64,000 nt of DNA from Escherichia phage LYE-01, in the sequence record PQ303785.1, one strand, 5' to 3'. The translations under genes and the position numbers were made by a program. How positions within the stretch are numbered: position 1 is the first letter of the stretch; every line of letters starts with the position of its first letter. Positions 3,687-10,416 of this stretch are shown one piece after another. Below the pieces are notes generated by a model that saw only the letters and a list, made by a program, of their open reading frames with translations, was not told the DNA's origin and made no database searches.

Positions 3687-3710
3687 GAGCTTCGGCTCCT
3701 ATATTGCTTT
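3685..3710 (+). terminator. hairpin AGGAGC-TTCG-GCTCCT with weak T tract
   Basis: Stem with UUCG loop; poor U-run, so may be an RNA stability element. Confidence 0.35.
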
Positions 3711-3752
3711 ATAAATTTTTGGTAAAATAAACCAAAACAATGAGGATATTAA

Positions 3753-4994: not shown

Positions 4995-5135
4995 ATGATA
5001 TTTCTTGGATATGTGATACTTTTTCTGGCGTTTTATTTGTTCACCAGAGCGTGTTGGATTGGGTTCTTTAGTACTCCAGATGGATTTATTTCAATAATTT
5101 TATTTTGCATTTCAATGACGGTTCTTGATATATGA
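4995..5135 (+). CDS. hypothetical small membrane protein (46 aa)
   Basis: Hydrophobic ORF; ATG overlaps an extended -10-like TGATATAAT, so expression is uncertain. Confidence 0.25.
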   Translation: MIFLGYVILFLAFYLFTRACWIGFFSTPDGFISIILFCISMTVLDI

Positions 5136-5755
5136 AAAAATATATAACTTATTTAACAATATATAGTGGAGATAAACTTCCTCCTTTTTATATTGGATCT
5201 ACATCTTTAGACAGGCATTTAGCCGGATATCATGGATCAGTTTTATCTAAAAAGTATAAGAAAATTTATAATGAAGAACTTTCAAATAACCCACATTTAT
5301 TTGATTCATGCATTTTAGATGAATTTGATACACGCGAAGAAGCTATTAAATGCGAGCTATATTATCAACGTTTGCATGATGCGGTTAAAAATCCATTATT
5401 CTTTAATATGTCATATGCTGCTCCAAAAGGTTCATTTGGAAGAGATATTAAAGGACAAAATCATCCATTATATGGTTCTCATAATTGTAAAGGAAACATA
5501 CATTCACATGACCCATTAACAGGAAAATCTGCCTTTTTACCGTATATTCCAGAAGGTTATGTAAAAGGAAGGTCAAATAAATTTAAAGCTTCATCACATA
5601 ATAAAGGTAAAAAATGGTATAATAACGGAGTTAAGCAAATGTTATGTCATGAACCTCCTGGTCCTGAATGGACAAAAGGAAAAATTAAAGAACTAGTTTC
5701 AAAAGCAGCTAAATTAGGATGGAAAAGACACCATGAAAATACTAAACTTGGGTGA
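5132..5755 (+). CDS. GIY-YIG family endonuclease, Seg-like homing endonuclease candidate (207 aa)
   Basis: N-terminus YITYLTIYSGDKLPPFYIGSTS gives GIY and YIG motifs about 11 residues apart; basic C-terminal region (NKGKKWYNNG); overlaps gene 47 start by 23 nt. Confidence 0.6.
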   Translation: MKKYITYLTIYSGDKLPPFYIGSTSLDRHLAGYHGSVLSKKYKKIYNEELSNNPHLFDSCILDEFDTREEAIKCELYYQRLHDAVKNPLFFNMSYAAPKGSFGRDIKGQNHPLYGSHNCKGNIHSHDPLTGKSAFLPYIPEGYVKGRSNKFKASSHNKGKKWYNNGVKQMLCHEPPGPEWTKGKIKELVSKAAKLGWKRHHENTKLG

Positions 5756-6752
5756 TTGGCATTTAGGCGTTAAAGCTGATGATGAATGGATTCGCGGTAT
5801 TCAAATTGATGGAATTAAACAAGCGATAGAATATTCTAAGAAAAATGGAATTACTGTATGGATTCAATACGGTGATATTTTTGATGTACGAAAAGCGATC
5901 ACGCATAAAACTATGGAGTTTGCTCGTGAAATAGTTCAAATGCTTGATGACGTTGGAATCACATTACATACTATTGTAGGAAATCACGATCTCCACTATA
6001 AAAATGTAATGCATCCAAATGCTTCTACTGAGCTTTTGGCTAAATATCCTAATGTTAAAGTATATGATAAGCCTACTACAGTAGATTTTGACGGATGCTT
6101 GATTGATTTAATTCCTTGGATGTGTGAAGAAAATACTGGTGAAATTCTTGAACACATCAAAACTTCATCTGCTTCTTTTTGTGTCGGTCACTGGGAGCTG
6201 AATGGATTTTATTTTTATAAAGGAATGAAATCTCACGGTCTTGAACCTGATTTCCTTAAGACTTATAAAGAAGTGTGGTCTGGTCACTTCCATACTATCT
6301 CTGAGGCTGCTAACGTCAGATATATTGGGACACCATGGACACTAACTGCAGGTGACGAGAATGACCCTCGCGGGTTCTGGATGTTTGATACAGAAACAGA
6401 ACGAATGGAATTTATTCCAAACAACACTACCTGGCATCGTCGAATTCAATATCCATTTAAGGGAAAAATTGACTATAAAGATTTTACAAATCTATCAGTA
6501 CGTGTTATAGTAACTGAGGTAGACAAAAATCTGACGAAGTTCGAATCTGAACTAGAAAAAGTTGTGCATTCATTACGAGTTGTGTCAAAGATTGATAACT
6601 CTGTCGAGTCAGATGATAGCGAAGAGGTTGAAGTTCAATCTCTTCAGACGTTGATGGAAGAATACATTAATGCAATTCCAGACATCACTGATTCTGACCG
6701 CGAAGCACTTATTCAATATGCAAATCAGTTATATGTAGAGGCAACACAATGA
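5733..6752 (+). CDS. 47: gp47 recombination nuclease subunit (Mre11-like, 339 aa)
   Basis: Phosphoesterase motifs (GDWH, GNHD, GHFH); size and synteny as T4 gp47. Confidence 0.9.
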   Translation: MKILNLGDWHLGVKADDEWIRGIQIDGIKQAIEYSKKNGITVWIQYGDIFDVRKAITHKTMEFAREIVQMLDDVGITLHTIVGNHDLHYKNVMHPNASTELLAKYPNVKVYDKPTTVDFDGCLIDLIPWMCEENTGEILEHIKTSSASFCVGHWELNGFYFYKGMKSHGLEPDFLKTYKEVWSGHFHTISEAANVRYIGTPWTLTAGDENDPRGFWMFDTETERMEFIPNNTTWHRRIQYPFKGKIDYKDFTNLSVRVIVTEVDKNLTKFESELEKVVHSLRVVSKIDNSVESDDSEEVEVQSLQTLMEEYINAIPDITDSDREALIQYANQLYVEATQ

Positions 6753-7012
6753 CTTTTGATGAATTTAAAAATGTTATGATGAGTCAGCATTTTGAATGCG
6801 AAGTAAAAGATGATATTGGGCATAAAGAAATTATTGAATACTGGTTTGAACCACTAGAGGTTGAAGATAATTGTATTAAAAAGGTTACGGTCTGCACTGA
6901 CTGGGCTGTATCTTTTAACTTCAACATTTTAGATAATGACACACCTAAATCAGTACAAGATATGGCTGTATCTTGTATTAAGGATGCATACTGTGAAGTT
7001 TTCGACATTTGA
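6749..7012 (+). CDS. hypothetical protein (87 aa)
   Basis: ATG overlaps gene 47 stop (ATGA). Confidence 0.4.
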   Translation: MTFDEFKNVMMSQHFECEVKDDIGHKEIIEYWFEPLEVEDNCIKKVTVCTDWAVSFNFNILDNDTPKSVQDMAVSCIKDAYCEVFDI

Positions 7013-7199
7013 CATTAACGATGAATTCATAGCAAATATTGATTACACCGAAGAAGATTCTAGATATGTTGGAATAATTTATATCACATCAAAAGCAGCA
7101 CAAGGTGTTGTTTGCATGGCTGAATTTGATGAATACTTTTTAGATTATGATGATATGATAGAATGGTCTAAAAGATACATTAAAAGGAATCTTTTGTGA
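6993..7199 (+). CDS. hypothetical protein (GTG 6993 chosen; frame open from 6936)
   Basis: N-terminus VKFSTFDINDEF resembles the N-terminus of the downstream HNH ORF. Confidence 0.3.
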   Translation: MKFSTFDINDEFIANIDYTEEDSRYVGIIYITSKAAQGVVCMAEFDEYFLDYDDMIEWSKRYIKRNLL

Positions 7200-8050
7200 A
7201 GAATTTTAAACTTGACATTAATGATGAATTTTTAATAAAGGAATTAGTTGAAAAATTAGCGTTGAGTGAAGAAGACGCCAAGTCTTACATTAATTTTATT
7301 TCTATGAATTCAACTGTTAAAACTCCAGGTAAAACGGAAGCACACCACGTGCTTCCTAAATCAATATTTCCTGAATATTTAAAATCTACATGGAATTTAG
7401 TTAATTTAAGTCATTTTAATCATTTTAAAGCACACTTCTTATTAGCAAAAGGTAAAAATGGAAAAATGCTAAATGCTTTAAATAGAATGATGTCAGGAAA
7501 AACATATAAAAATTTATCTTTAGCCGAAGTTGATTTAATAGCTGCTGAATATAGTTTTATAAAACAAGATGTAAGTGACACAATATCAAAAAGGCTTCAA
7601 CAGTATTATTCAAATCCGCAAAATAGAAATGCTGCTAGAGAAAGGGCATTAAAATATTTTTCAGTAGCAAAAAATAGGAAAGATAACAAAGAAAGATTAA
7701 ATAATTTTAAAACAAAACAAAAAATTTCAATGGCTTCAAGGGAATGGTTTAATAACGAAGAAAATAAAATTAAACACCAAAAGGCTGTTCGTGCTGCTTT
7801 ATCAAAACCTGAATATAAAATAGCTATATCAAATTCAGTAGCTGCTAGTTGGAAAAATCCGGAGATTAGAAAAGCTCATATAGCATCTAGACGAAAAGGC
7901 TATCATTGGGATAATAAAGATAAATTGTATGAATTGTGGATATCATATAATCGTCCTAAACATGTGATGTTTAGGAAAATGTTAGTTAAGAATGGATATC
8001 CAATAGAGGCTTCATTACAGGCTTTAGTTAAAGAATTTTCTTCATTGTGA
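7196..8050 (+). CDS. HNH homing endonuclease candidate (Mob-like, 284 aa, GTG start)
   Basis: HNH motif EAHHVLPKS...NLVNLSHFNHFKAH; C-terminal repeated basic modules; AT/Lys-rich composition; sits between 47 and 46. Confidence 0.65.
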   Translation: MKNFKLDINDEFLIKELVEKLALSEEDAKSYINFISMNSTVKTPGKTEAHHVLPKSIFPEYLKSTWNLVNLSHFNHFKAHFLLAKGKNGKMLNALNRMMSGKTYKNLSLAEVDLIAAEYSFIKQDVSDTISKRLQQYYSNPQNRNAARERALKYFSVAKNRKDNKERLNNFKTKQKISMASREWFNNEENKIKHQKAVRAALSKPEYKIAISNSVAASWKNPEIRKAHIASRRKGYHWDNKDKLYELWISYNRPKHVMFRKMLVKNGYPIEASLQALVKEFSSL

Positions 8051-8065
8051 ACAATTGGATACAAA

Positions 8066-9748
8066 ATGAAATCATTTAAACTTAATAGAGTAAAATATAA
8101 AAATATAATGTCAGTTGGTCAAAATGGAGTTGACATTCAATTAGATAAGGTTCAAAAAACTCTTATTACTGGACGAAATGGCGGTGGTAAGTCTACTATG
8201 TTAGAAGCCATCACATTTGGGCTTTTTGGCAAGCCATTTCGTGATGTAAAGAAAGGTCAATTAATAAACAGCACAAATAAGAAAGAACTTTTAGTTGAAC
8301 TGTGGATGGAATATGATGAGAAAAAGTACTATATCAAAAGAGGACAAAAACCAAACGTTTTCGAAATCACCGTTAACGGTACACGTCTTAATGAATCTGC
8401 CAGCAGTAAAGATTTCCAAGCAGAATTTGAACAGCTTATCGGAATGTCATATGCCAGTTTCAAGCAGATTGTTGTCCTTGGTACAGCAGGGTATACCCCT
8501 TTCATGGGTTTGTCGACCCCTGCGCGAAGAAAGCTTGTGGAAGACCTGCTTGAGGTAGGAACATTAGCTGAAATGGATAAGCTTAATAAAGCACTAATAC
8601 GTGAATTAAATTCACAAAACCAAGTGCTTGATGTTAAAAAAGATAGTATTATCCAGCAAATTAAAATATATAATGATAACGTTGAACGTCAGAAAAAATT
8701 AACTGGTGATAACCTTACTCGTCTGCAGAATATGTATGATGATTTGGCGAAAGAAGCTAGAACGTTAAAATCGGAAATAGAAGAAGCTAATGAAAGATTA
8801 GTTAATATTGTTTTGGATGAAGACCCGACTGATGCATTTAATAAAATCGGTCAAGAAGCATTTTTAATTAAATCAAAAATTGACTCGTATAATAAAGTCA
8901 TTAATATGTATCACGAAGGTGGATTATGTCCAACCTGTTTGTCACAATTAAGTTCCGGTGATAAAGTTGTTTCTAAAATTAAAGATAAAGTTTCTGAATG
9001 CACGCATTCGTTTGAACAGCTTTCAACACATCGTGATAATTTAAAAGTTCTCGTTGATGAATACCGAGATAATATTAAAACCCAGCAGACGTTGGCGAAT
9101 GATATTCGCAATAAAAAGCAATCCTTAATCACGACGATAGATAAAGCTAAAAAGGTTAAAGCGGCTATAGAAAAAGCATCATCCGAGTTTATTGACCATG
9201 CTGATGAAATAGCACTGCTTCAAGAAGAACTTGATAAAATTGTTAAGACAAAAACTAATTTAGTAATGGAAAAATACCACAGAGGAATTTTGACTGACAT
9301 GCTCAAAGATTCTGGTATTAAAGGTGCTATTATTAAAAAGTACATTCCATTATTTAATAAGCAGATTAACCATTATCTTAAAATAATGGAAGCGGATTAT
9401 GTGTTTACATTAGATGAAGAATTTAATGAGACAATTAAATCCCGTGGTCGCGAAGATTTTAGTTATGCTTCATTCAGTGAAGGTGAAAAAGCACGAATTG
9501 ATATTGCTCTTTTATTTACTTGGCGTGATATTGCTTCTATCGTATCTGGTGTTAGTATTAGTACATTAATTCTTGATGAAGTGTTTGATGGGTCATTTGA
9601 TGCCGAAGGTATTAAAGGTGTAGCGAATATTATAAATTCAATGAAAAATACTAATGTTTTTATAATTTCGCATAAAGACCACGACCCGCAAGAATATGGT
9701 CAGCATCTTCAAATGAAGAAAGTTGGTCGGTTTACTGTAATGGTTTAA
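8066..9748 (+). CDS. 46: gp46 recombination nuclease ATPase subunit (Rad50/SbcC-like, 560 aa)
   Basis: Walker A GRNGGGKST, Zn-hook CPTC, coiled-coil middle, C-terminal LILDE Walker B; 560 aa as T4 gp46. Confidence 0.9.
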   Translation: MKSFKLNRVKYKNIMSVGQNGVDIQLDKVQKTLITGRNGGGKSTMLEAITFGLFGKPFRDVKKGQLINSTNKKELLVELWMEYDEKKYYIKRGQKPNVFEITVNGTRLNESASSKDFQAEFEQLIGMSYASFKQIVVLGTAGYTPFMGLSTPARRKLVEDLLEVGTLAEMDKLNKALIRELNSQNQVLDVKKDSIIQQIKIYNDNVERQKKLTGDNLTRLQNMYDDLAKEARTLKSEIEEANERLVNIVLDEDPTDAFNKIGQEAFLIKSKIDSYNKVINMYHEGGLCPTCLSQLSSGDKVVSKIKDKVSECTHSFEQLSTHRDNLKVLVDEYRDNIKTQQTLANDIRNKKQSLITTIDKAKKVKAAIEKASSEFIDHADEIALLQEELDKIVKTKTNLVMEKYHRGILTDMLKDSGIKGAIIKKYIPLFNKQINHYLKIMEADYVFTLDEEFNETIKSRGREDFSYASFSEGEKARIDIALLFTWRDIASIVSGVSISTLILDEVFDGSFDAEGIKGVANIINSMKNTNVFIISHKDHDPQEYGQHLQMKKVGRFTVMV

Positions 9749-9802
9749 TTTATAAGAGATTATGCTTTAATTTATTAGAGTATAATCTCTATGGAGGAAA
9801 AC

Positions 9803-10391: not shown

Positions 10392-10416
10392 TGCTTTATT
10401 AAATTAGTTATAAAAT
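10392..10416 (+). promoter_or_regulatory. candidate MotA-box middle promoter overlapping a late-promoter-like TATAAAAT, upstream of gene 45
   Basis: TGCTTTA at 10392-10398; TATAAAAT at 10409-10416. Confidence 0.4.

Follow-up and report, generated by a model that had tools for sequence, protein, structure and literature searches.

The subject of this study is an open reading frame (ORF) in a 64,000-nucleotide (nt) stretch of the genome of Escherichia phage LYE-01 (PQ303785.1), hereafter the window. The ORF begins with GTG, encodes 284 amino acids (aa) on the + strand (7196-8050 in the ORF list) and lies immediately before gene 46. We conclude that it is very probably a free-standing homing endonuclease gene (HEG) of the Mob family of HNH enzymes, closest to MobD of phage T4, and that it would home at gene 46. 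A further reading, offered more tentatively, is that HEGs of this lineage enter a locus by taking over the translation start of the gene already there, and that a series of natural alleles pinpoints the place where the enzyme would cut. Its activity as a nuclease, whether by a nick or a double-strand cut, its present mobility, its precise target and the immunity of carriers are inferred from sequence.

A MobD-like gene upstream of gene 46

The window is a segment of a T-even (Tequatrovirus) genome, presented in the direction of transcription, with the gene order a-gt, 47.1, a GIY-YIG ORF, 47, 46.2, 46.1, the HEG, 46, 45.2, rpbA, 45 and 44. An earlier note on this DNA had called the HEG with exactly the limits and length that the ORF list gives, had placed it between genes 47 and 46, and had described it as rich in AT and in lysine. 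It does stand upstream of 46, though not directly after 47, from which 46.2 and 46.1 separate it. Its composition is as described: its GC content of 28.4% is lower than that of the window as a whole (35.0%) and of the neighbouring genes (30-36%), and lysine makes up 13.3% of its residues, against 5.8-11.1% in the neighbours. Because it spans 284 codons at 28% GC and has 975 database relatives (E <= 1e-3), it is not a chance ORF. These relatives came from an exhaustive search of representative proteins, which was required because a word-indexed protein search gave only 7.

The start of the HEG is also secure, because the GTG at 7196 is the first start, and the earliest possible, downstream of an in-frame stop; because AAGGA stands 7 nt before it and it overlaps the 46.1 stop as GTGA; and because residues 10-38 form two helices predicted with confidence (predicted local distance difference test score, pLDDT, ~97). 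The annotation of phage P8 instead starts the gene at an internal Met36, which would truncate the conserved domain, since these helices carry the invariant Y31.

Profile and sequence comparisons place the protein in the Mob family, in agreement with the homing endonuclease identity first proposed. PHROG 655, labeled "homing endonuclease," matches it end to end (7.8e-45), and PHROG 12434, "HNH endonuclease," also matches (4.4e-15). Among T4 proteins, BLASTP finds MobD with 30% identity over 243 aa (residues 47-281, E 1e-17), followed by MobB (8e-8), MobC (3e-7) and MobE (1.5e-4). In hhalign, the HEG subfamily profile and the nuclease domains of canonical T4 Mob proteins align over 72 columns with a probability of 99.6% (E 5.7e-24). 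The earlier note had named a lack of HNH or DNA-binding profile matches as grounds for abandoning its proposal; the PHROG 655 and hhalign results are such matches.

The HNH motif that the note had quoted is present, as EAHHVLPKS at residues 48-56 and NLVNLSHFNHFKAH at residues 67-80. Across 75 homologues H50, H51, P54, N67, H76 and H80 are invariant, and H50, H51, N67, H76 and H80 line up with the E-x-HH, NLV and EH..AH elements of MobE. We take the spacing H-H-x15-N-x8-H-x3-H to be near that of the H-N-H motif of colicin E9. Where the canonical Mob profile reads HHIIPRxxGGxDDxxNLVxLTxxEHxxAH, the HEG belongs to a variant with the catalytic loop HH(I/V)LPKSxFPEYxxxxWNxVxLxxxxHxxAH, found in 105 of the 155 relatives retrieved. 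The Pfam HNH model (PF01844) matches only 4 of the 75 homologues. Among the T4 proteins, MobB, MobC and MobE reach its cut-off, MobE narrowly (21.5 bits where 21.4 are required), and MobD does not.

AlphaFold2 modeled the HEG protein from a 37-sequence alignment with a mean pLDDT of 95.5. Two beta strands (47-51 and 68-72) and a helix (73-84) carry the invariant HNH residues, and the isolated domain is predicted with the same topology. This predicted model is consistent with an HNH nuclease, without proving one; the core is small and the remainder is helical repeat. Structure searches did not recover an HNH fold at significant scores. The C-terminal module follows the pattern W..YD.LY.LW...N.PK...F......GYP......LV.EF, which MobD and many homologues share. 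The intervening region had been described as repeated basic modules, a description that holds for the model, in which residues 109-232 form a regular stack of short helices, and holds less well for the sequence, where repetition is weak: the two top internal matches of 15 residues have scores of 31 and 28, and shuffled sequences reach a maximum of 24.5 +/- 3.5. As these repeats barely exceed shuffled sequence, we dropped the idea that the C-terminal half consists of NUMOD repeats. The NUMOD search that had been suggested found none in the HEG protein with Pfam, though NUMOD3 occurs in 21 of the 75 homologues, and NUMOD1, I-HmuI-like and I-TevI DNA-binding modules occur in a few.

The HEG has taken the start of gene 46

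In T4 no gene separates 46.1 from 46, which overlap by GTGA; the statement in the earlier note that T4 has only small ORFs at this position was right. The element adds 870 bp to the T4 arrangement between 46.1 and 46 and is edged by an imperfect direct repeat, 18 nt long, of the beginning of gene 46 (14 of 18 positions matching, with a perfect TTTAAACTT within it). On the left, the window follows T4 through GTGAAGAATTTTAAACTT, and the HEG diverges thereafter; this copy of the repeat is 18/18 identical to T4, RB32, HY01 and fPS-90 up to the last base. On the right, T4 homology picks up at ATGAAATCATTTAAACTT and continues with AATAGAGTAAAATAT. The HEG stop lies 15 nt upstream of an independent ATG, so that gene 46 in the HEG-positive allele has a new start, uncoupled from 46.1. 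Both junctions are identical in all six of the HEG-positive genomes inspected. The three-base difference of AAT to TCA in one codon of this new start is accounted for by the identity of its first 15 nt to RB69, which suggests, on sequence grounds, that the 3' junction of the cassette came from a foreign donor.

The N-terminus of the HEG is a chimera of two resident genes, because codons 1-6 come from gene 46 and codons 7-12 from 46.1. The latter stretch, GACATTAATGATGAATT, matches the 46.1 copy at 17/17 positions in T4, RB32, HY01, T2 and T6 and at 16/17 in the window, where 0.06 matches of 17 nt with one mismatch are expected by chance. The residues that it encodes, DINDEF, are missing from homologues of the HEG. 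We rejected an intron- or intein-encoded endonuclease: no group I intron was found at the locus with Rfam at E <= 1, and the HEG stop precedes the separate ATG of gene 46.

Orthologues in two further genera open in a comparable way. The next closest relative in the exhaustive search, P0008, is 44% identical to the HEG, and tblastn of P0008 against HEG-positive Tequatrovirus puts the HEGs of Mosigvirus G2469 and Gelderlandvirus UoN_LG358_1 at ~43% identity to that of the window. Full-length HEG ORFs stand directly upstream of gene 46 in these two phages, and an orthologue does so in Mosigvirus F2, whose copy is already annotated "MobD-like." The order is 47, 46.2, HEG, 46 in G2469 and 47, HEG, 46 in UoN_LG358_1. 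In G2469 the HEG sits in place of 46.1 and opens with the first seven codons of an RB69-type 46.1, ATGACGAAGACTGATTATGAA (MTKTDYE), implying that the HEG lineage has captured the start of a resident gene at least twice. An earlier stage of fusion to 46.1 would best account for the 46.1-derived codons 7-12 in the Tequatrovirus HEG.

Occupied and empty sites

A 2.2-kb query spanning the locus matched 562 phage records, 71 of them with the ORF. The state of the site in Tequatrovirus records was scored with 140-nt junction probes, a two-piece match being taken as occupied. By this measure, 433 of ~503 records are empty and ~70 occupied, an occupancy of ~14%. The presence/absence comparison proposed in the earlier note thus reveals a polymorphic site, and uniform conservation among relatives, which the note had named as grounds against its proposal, is not seen.

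Carriers include T2, T6, RB51, RB68, PP01 and ECML-134, together with phages isolated on Shigella, Salmonella, Citrobacter and Hafnia. Their HEG copies differ from that of the window by 0-7 substitutions in 855 nt, while the 47-46 sequence around them includes mosaic blocks in which 12-23 positions differ per 60 nt. The gene is intact (855 nt) in T6 and most other carriers; frameshifted copies occur in T2 (853 nt, annotated as two ORFs) and in RB51, RB68 and MLP2 (854 nt). RefSeq labels the gene "homing endonuclease."

Two further length or sequence variants were set aside. The first, a copy only 71.5% identical at the nucleotide level in OK040907.1 ("Enterobacteria phage Ac3," locus L007, 1801-2670), was considered as a diverged natural allele and dropped, being codon-recoded: its GC content is 45% against 28%, its protein is the same up to an RB51-like frameshift, its start has changed from GTG to GTT, and Met36 has become Val. 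The 4.4-kb Ac3 locus is 84.5% identical to that of RB51 despite near-equal record length, and the record looks engineered or artefactual rather than naturally diverged. The second, an extra 79 bp in vB_Eco_EH2 (locus L006, ~1410-1535) and in BYEP02, was rejected as an HEG scar: it sits in 46.2, where it splits the annotation, not at the HEG site, and is absent from the other loci.

A substitution patch in gene 46 travels with the HEG

Just downstream of the insertion, gene 46 carries a patch of substitutions that distinguishes the alleles. Between the common HEG-less allele (RB32, HY01, fPS-90 and EH2) and all six of the HEG-positive genomes inspected, there are 14 substitutions within 8083-8129. 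They fall as 5 plus 9 differences. The sequence immediately to either side has 0-3 differences per 60 nt, and the remaining mosaic blocks are more distant. All of the ~70 HEG-positive Tequatrovirus records have the same patch, judged by their two-piece matches being to the T4-type probe only. Among the empty Tequatrovirus sites, ~360 are of RB32 type; another ~65-75, including that of T4, have the HEG-type patch alone. Mosigvirus records show a similar series: 10 are occupied, ~6 are empty with the HEG-type allele and 116 are empty with an RB69-type allele.

The patch is 33-47 nt long (from codon 6 or 12 to codon 22), linked to the HEG in two genera and also found alone. In the patch-only phage WFK, 46.1 is intact, gene 46 keeps its native start ATGAAATCA, and only codons 12-22 are converted. 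Alleles without the HEG share TATCAAAAYATMATGTCRGTAGGTGGRAATCCTATTGA; where they have GTA GGT GGR, HEG-positive alleles of three genera share GTT GGN CAA. In all three genera, the first base of codon 12 is changed, GTA becomes GTT synonymously, and GGR becomes CAA, turning SVGG into SVGQ in gp46. Short conversion tracts centred on codons 12-22, with or without an HEG 35-65 nt upstream, are the trace expected if a break there were repaired from an HEG-positive template. We therefore propose that the enzyme nicks or cuts the RB32/RB69-type sequence at this place and that the patch confers immunity; the allele comparison points to the patch as the likely cleavage or immunity site of the HEG.

The origin of the T4-type allele could lie either in conversion of the patch only or in precise loss of the HEG by recombination in the TTTAAACTT repeat; both routes yield exactly the sequence of T4.

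A model for homing and its rivals

We propose that the HEG, lacking its own promoter, would be transcribed with the 47-46.2-46.1-46 operon. Translation would begin at the signals that serve gene 46 in HEG-less phages, namely AAGGA and the GTG that overlaps the stop of 46.1. A beta-beta-alpha-metal domain at the N-terminus (H50, H51, N67, H76, H80) would nick or cut DNA, to which the basic helical repeats and C-terminal module would bind. In a mixed infection, the enzyme would cut gene 46 of a co-infecting phage that lacks the HEG, most likely at codons 12-22, where RB32- and RB69-type alleles carry TATCAAAAYATMATGTCRGTAGGTGGRAATCCTATTGA, 35-65 nt downstream of the insertion point; in RB32-type DNA the predicted cut would lie within or near TATCAAAATATAATGTCAGTAGGTGGAAATCCTATTGA. 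Recombinational repair from the HEG-positive genome would then copy the patch, and the HEG too if the conversion tract were long enough, and the patch substitutions would protect the HEG-positive genome.

For the history of the element, we suggest that the Mosigvirus HEG replaced 46.1 and kept its first seven codons, and that gene 46 of Tequatrovirus was rebuilt from a Mosigvirus-like ATG start brought in by the cassette. Start capture, this history and an allele series that pinpoints the cut form one reading, which we regard as a serious possibility and still a tentative one. If it is true, the three-state polymorphism in two genera (sensitive and empty, occupied, patch-only and empty) represents a live homing cycle, acting on a gene whose Rad50-like product, gp46, processes the very breaks that homing needs.

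Several points weigh against homing at the patch or against the nuclease identity. The linkage between HEG and patch could come from shared ancestry of one haplotype rather than from immunity, and the polarity could be the reverse, with the T4-type patch sensitive and the RB32-type resistant. Database records are redundant, with several entries for T2 and T4, so that the counts behind the ~14% occupancy are approximate. Pfam has no HNH model that matches the HEG protein even at E <= 1, and NCBIfam returned nothing; searches of the PDB with phmmer and profile hmmsearch gave no HNH structure, only spurious low-complexity matches. The literature that we searched contains no cleavage, nicking or inheritance data for this gene.

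The rival that survives best, which we nevertheless consider unlikely, is that the HEG is a decaying element that neither cuts nor homes, is intact in the window by recency only and is kept by its link to gene 46, an essential gene for which it now provides the start. The frameshifted copies in T2, RB51, RB68 and MLP2 fit this idea, as do a catalytic loop (IFPEYLKSTW) and an E-to-N change before H76 that deviate from canonical Mob proteins, and the lack of a Pfam HNH match. The low frequency of the HEG fits it too, as do the ~83% of empty sites with a different allele. However, the FPEY-WN form is the majority form among the relatives retrieved, with H, H, N, H and H invariant, which argues for a maintained subfamily and not for decay. 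Full-length orthologues ~43% identical have been retained in three genera, most Tequatrovirus copies have their full 855 nt, and short patch-only conversions, as in WFK and the T4-type allele, are the expected residue of recent cutting.

It is improbable, more so than decay, that the HEG is a domesticated nuclease that aids the phage, either by interfering with co-infecting relatives through their recombination-nuclease gene or by taking part in phage DNA transactions, and so is not purely selfish. Its position in the gp46/gp47 nuclease operon and its co-translation from gene 46 signals would suit such a role, and two reports (PMC11620839, PMC13096335) describe phage HEGs that can confer competitive or anti-defence benefits. 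However, ~86% of close relatives lack the HEG, several phages carry it in inactivated form, nothing indicates compensation, and the PADLOC defence-system models do not match its protein. Domestication would not exclude homing, since interference would be a by-product of the same cut. Finally, a non-catalytic DNA-binding protein that merely keeps an HNH-like scaffold would fit the mostly helical-repeat protein and the structure searches that gave no HNH fold at significant scores, and we consider it very improbable.

Comparison with known systems

The closest T4 paralogue of the HEG, MobD, is a free-standing HNH HEG between nrdC.11 and mobD.1, and the two share three parts: an N-terminal HH..N..H..AH nuclease, basic repeats, and a C-terminal W..YD.LY.LW..N.PK..F....GYP module. 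They differ in location, the HEG being inserted at the start of gene 46 and MobD in the nrdC region, and in their catalytic loops, SIFPEYLKSTWN in the HEG and CIGGNDDSDN in MobD. The HEG also differs in having an N-terminus made of host-gene codons and no Pfam HNH signal even at E = 1.

MobE is instructive in another way. According to one report (PMC2790892), it has been shown by experiment to be a nicking HEG, is promoterless and needs upstream transcription. Its nuclease domain is homologous to that of the HEG, it targets the 5' part of an adjacent conserved gene, and flanking polymorphisms are co-converted (PMC2790892; PMC2988022); the HEG would target gene 46 in a like manner. Experiments support both nicking and mobility for MobE, whereas the HEG is known from its sequence. 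MobE is only 141 aa long, without the long repeat region or the C-terminal module, and occupies an intergenic slot between nrdA and nrdB; the HEG is instead joined to the start and opening codons of its presumed target gene.

The T4 enzymes SegF and SegG are GIY-YIG HEGs known for "intronless homing" and for localised marker exclusion of T2. They resemble the HEG in being free-standing genes near a conserved gene, in a presumed cut of the HEG-less allele at short distance, and in polymorphisms that protect the carrier. The family is different (GIY-YIG there, HNH here), and the direction is reversed: T2 and T6 carry the HEG, whereas T4 lacks it and has the HEG-type patch. I-HmuI, an intron-encoded nicking HNH endonuclease of phage SPO1, is of solved structure. 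Like the HEG product, it has an N-terminal HNH nuclease followed by extended modular DNA-binding elements, and the Pfam model "I-HmuI_NUMOD-like" matches some homologues of the HEG. Unlike I-HmuI, the HEG is not intron-encoded, and its protein has no detectable sequence or fold match to solved HNH structures.

Our searches on gp46/gp47 and homing endonucleases, on T2 and T6 and in Mob reviews found no paper on this HEG, and the table of HEGs in a 2010 review covers the T4 set only. As T2 and T6 carry the element and T4 does not, a T-even HEG catalogue built on T4 is incomplete at the 47-46 operon. The understanding of homing is unchanged by these data, which provide a well-documented extra case of a known family at a site not in the literature. 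Details that appear to be undescribed are the shared gene 46 start, the RB69-like restart, the same slot in three genera and the linked patch. The comparative data supply a candidate target of 33-47 nt in gene 46, together with natural alleles that are occupied, putatively sensitive or putatively resistant, T6 being an intact donor and T2 a natural frameshift control. They also illustrate how an HEG can settle where neighbouring genes leave no gap: it occupies the start signals and opening codons of the gene downstream and provides that gene with a new start.

Expression signals and feature positions

No sigma-70-like site around the HEG exceeds chance, no terminator separates it from its neighbours, and the nearest late promoter, TATAAATA, is >18 kb away. 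On these grounds, and with no group I intron detected, we describe it as a promoterless free-standing cassette, as has been reported for mobA, mobC, mobD and mobE (PMC2988022; PMC2790892). The window contains 13 matches to a MotA-type middle-promoter pattern, where 2.8 +/- 1.6 would be expected (~4.7-fold enrichment). One of these lies inside the HEG and may serve as an embedded promoter for gene 46; two orthologous HEGs have a consensus-spaced TGCTTTA-N12-TAAAAT 145 nt before their ends.

Elsewhere in the window, patterns of the form TGCTTYA-N11-14-TANNNT stand just upstream of a-gt (3705-3728), 45.2 (9763-9788) and 45 (10392-10416), all on the + strand. The one before 45.2 is annotated as a "predicted middle promoter" in fPS-90.

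Table 1. Positions in the window of the HEG, its parts, its junctions and the adjoining genes
Feature	Position	Strand	Basis or remark
HEG ORF, Mob/MobD-like HNH endonuclease	7196..8050	+	PHROG 655, BLASTP to T4 MobD, hhalign, AlphaFold2 model
HNH nuclease core, residues 47-84	7334..7447	+	predicted secondary structure, invariant columns, Mob HNH alignment
Basic helical-repeat region, ~residues 109-234, presumed DNA-binding spacer	7520..7897	+	predicted helices; homologous to MobD repeat region
C-terminal module, residues 235-284, presumed DNA-binding domain	7898..8047	+	alignment to homologues, BLASTP to MobD
Candidate MotA-type middle promoter inside the HEG	7795..7821	+	TGCTTTA-N14-TAAAAT or N12-TATAAA; spacing slightly long
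AAGGA Shine-Dalgarno, 7 nt before HEG GTG	7184..7188	+	same sequence before T4 gene 46, where it is the native ribosome site; serves the HEG here
Left repeat copy GTGAAGAATTTTAAACTT, HEG codons 1-6 (MKNFKL)	7196..7213	+	first six codons of T4-type gene 46; GTG overlaps 46.1 stop (GTGA)
HEG codons 7-12 (DINDEF), GACATTAATGATGAATT	7214..7230	+	17-nt copy of 46.1 codons 7-12 (window 7011-7027)
Right repeat copy ATGAAATCATTTAAACTT, new gene 46 start (MKSFKL)	8066..8083	+	first 15 nt as in the RB69 (Mosigvirus) gene 46 start
HEG-linked substitution patch, gene 46 codons 6-22	8083..8129	+	14 differences from RB32-type allele; candidate cleavage/immunity site
Gene 46.1 (DUF5487)	6993..7199	+	Pfam DUF5487 2.1e-48; annotation concordant in T4, T2 and T6; stop overlaps HEG start
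Gene 46 (Rad50/SbcC-like recombination nuclease subunit), presumed target gene	8066..9748	+	ORF list and annotation

Other endonuclease slots in the operon

The 47-46 operon is a hotspot for HEGs, with three different slots seen. Apart from the HEG described above, the window has a second free-standing endonuclease ORF of 207 aa (5132-5755, + strand) between 47.1 and gene 47. It is also present in the Yersinia phage fPS-90 and absent from T4, T2, T6, RB51, RB32 and HY01. Its N-terminus is GIY-YIG-like (Pfam 9e-4, below the cut-off), and PHROG 10820, which matches it (2.3e-93), bears the label "HNH endonuclease," which looks like a mislabel. The remaining slot lies just after gene 46, where RB51 and RB32 have a mobB-like HNH HEG (RB32ORF054w) on the opposite strand (loci L001, 6251-6964, and L010, 3697-4101); the window lacks it.

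Mosaic blocks also occur in genes 46 and 47. At window 9535-9790, where gene 46 ends and the spacer leading to 45.2 follows, the last ~200 nt of the gene form such a block, with 15-23 differences per 60 nt from RB51, RB32, T2, EH2, fPS-90 and P8, and not from T4, T6 and HY01. In gene 47, two short blocks at 5954-6013 and 5774-5833 differ by 12-18 per 60 nt from RB51, T6, RB32, HY01 and P8 and by 1-2 from T4, T2 and fPS-90. They lie just downstream of the slot of the GIY-YIG ORF and may be another HEG-associated conversion patch.

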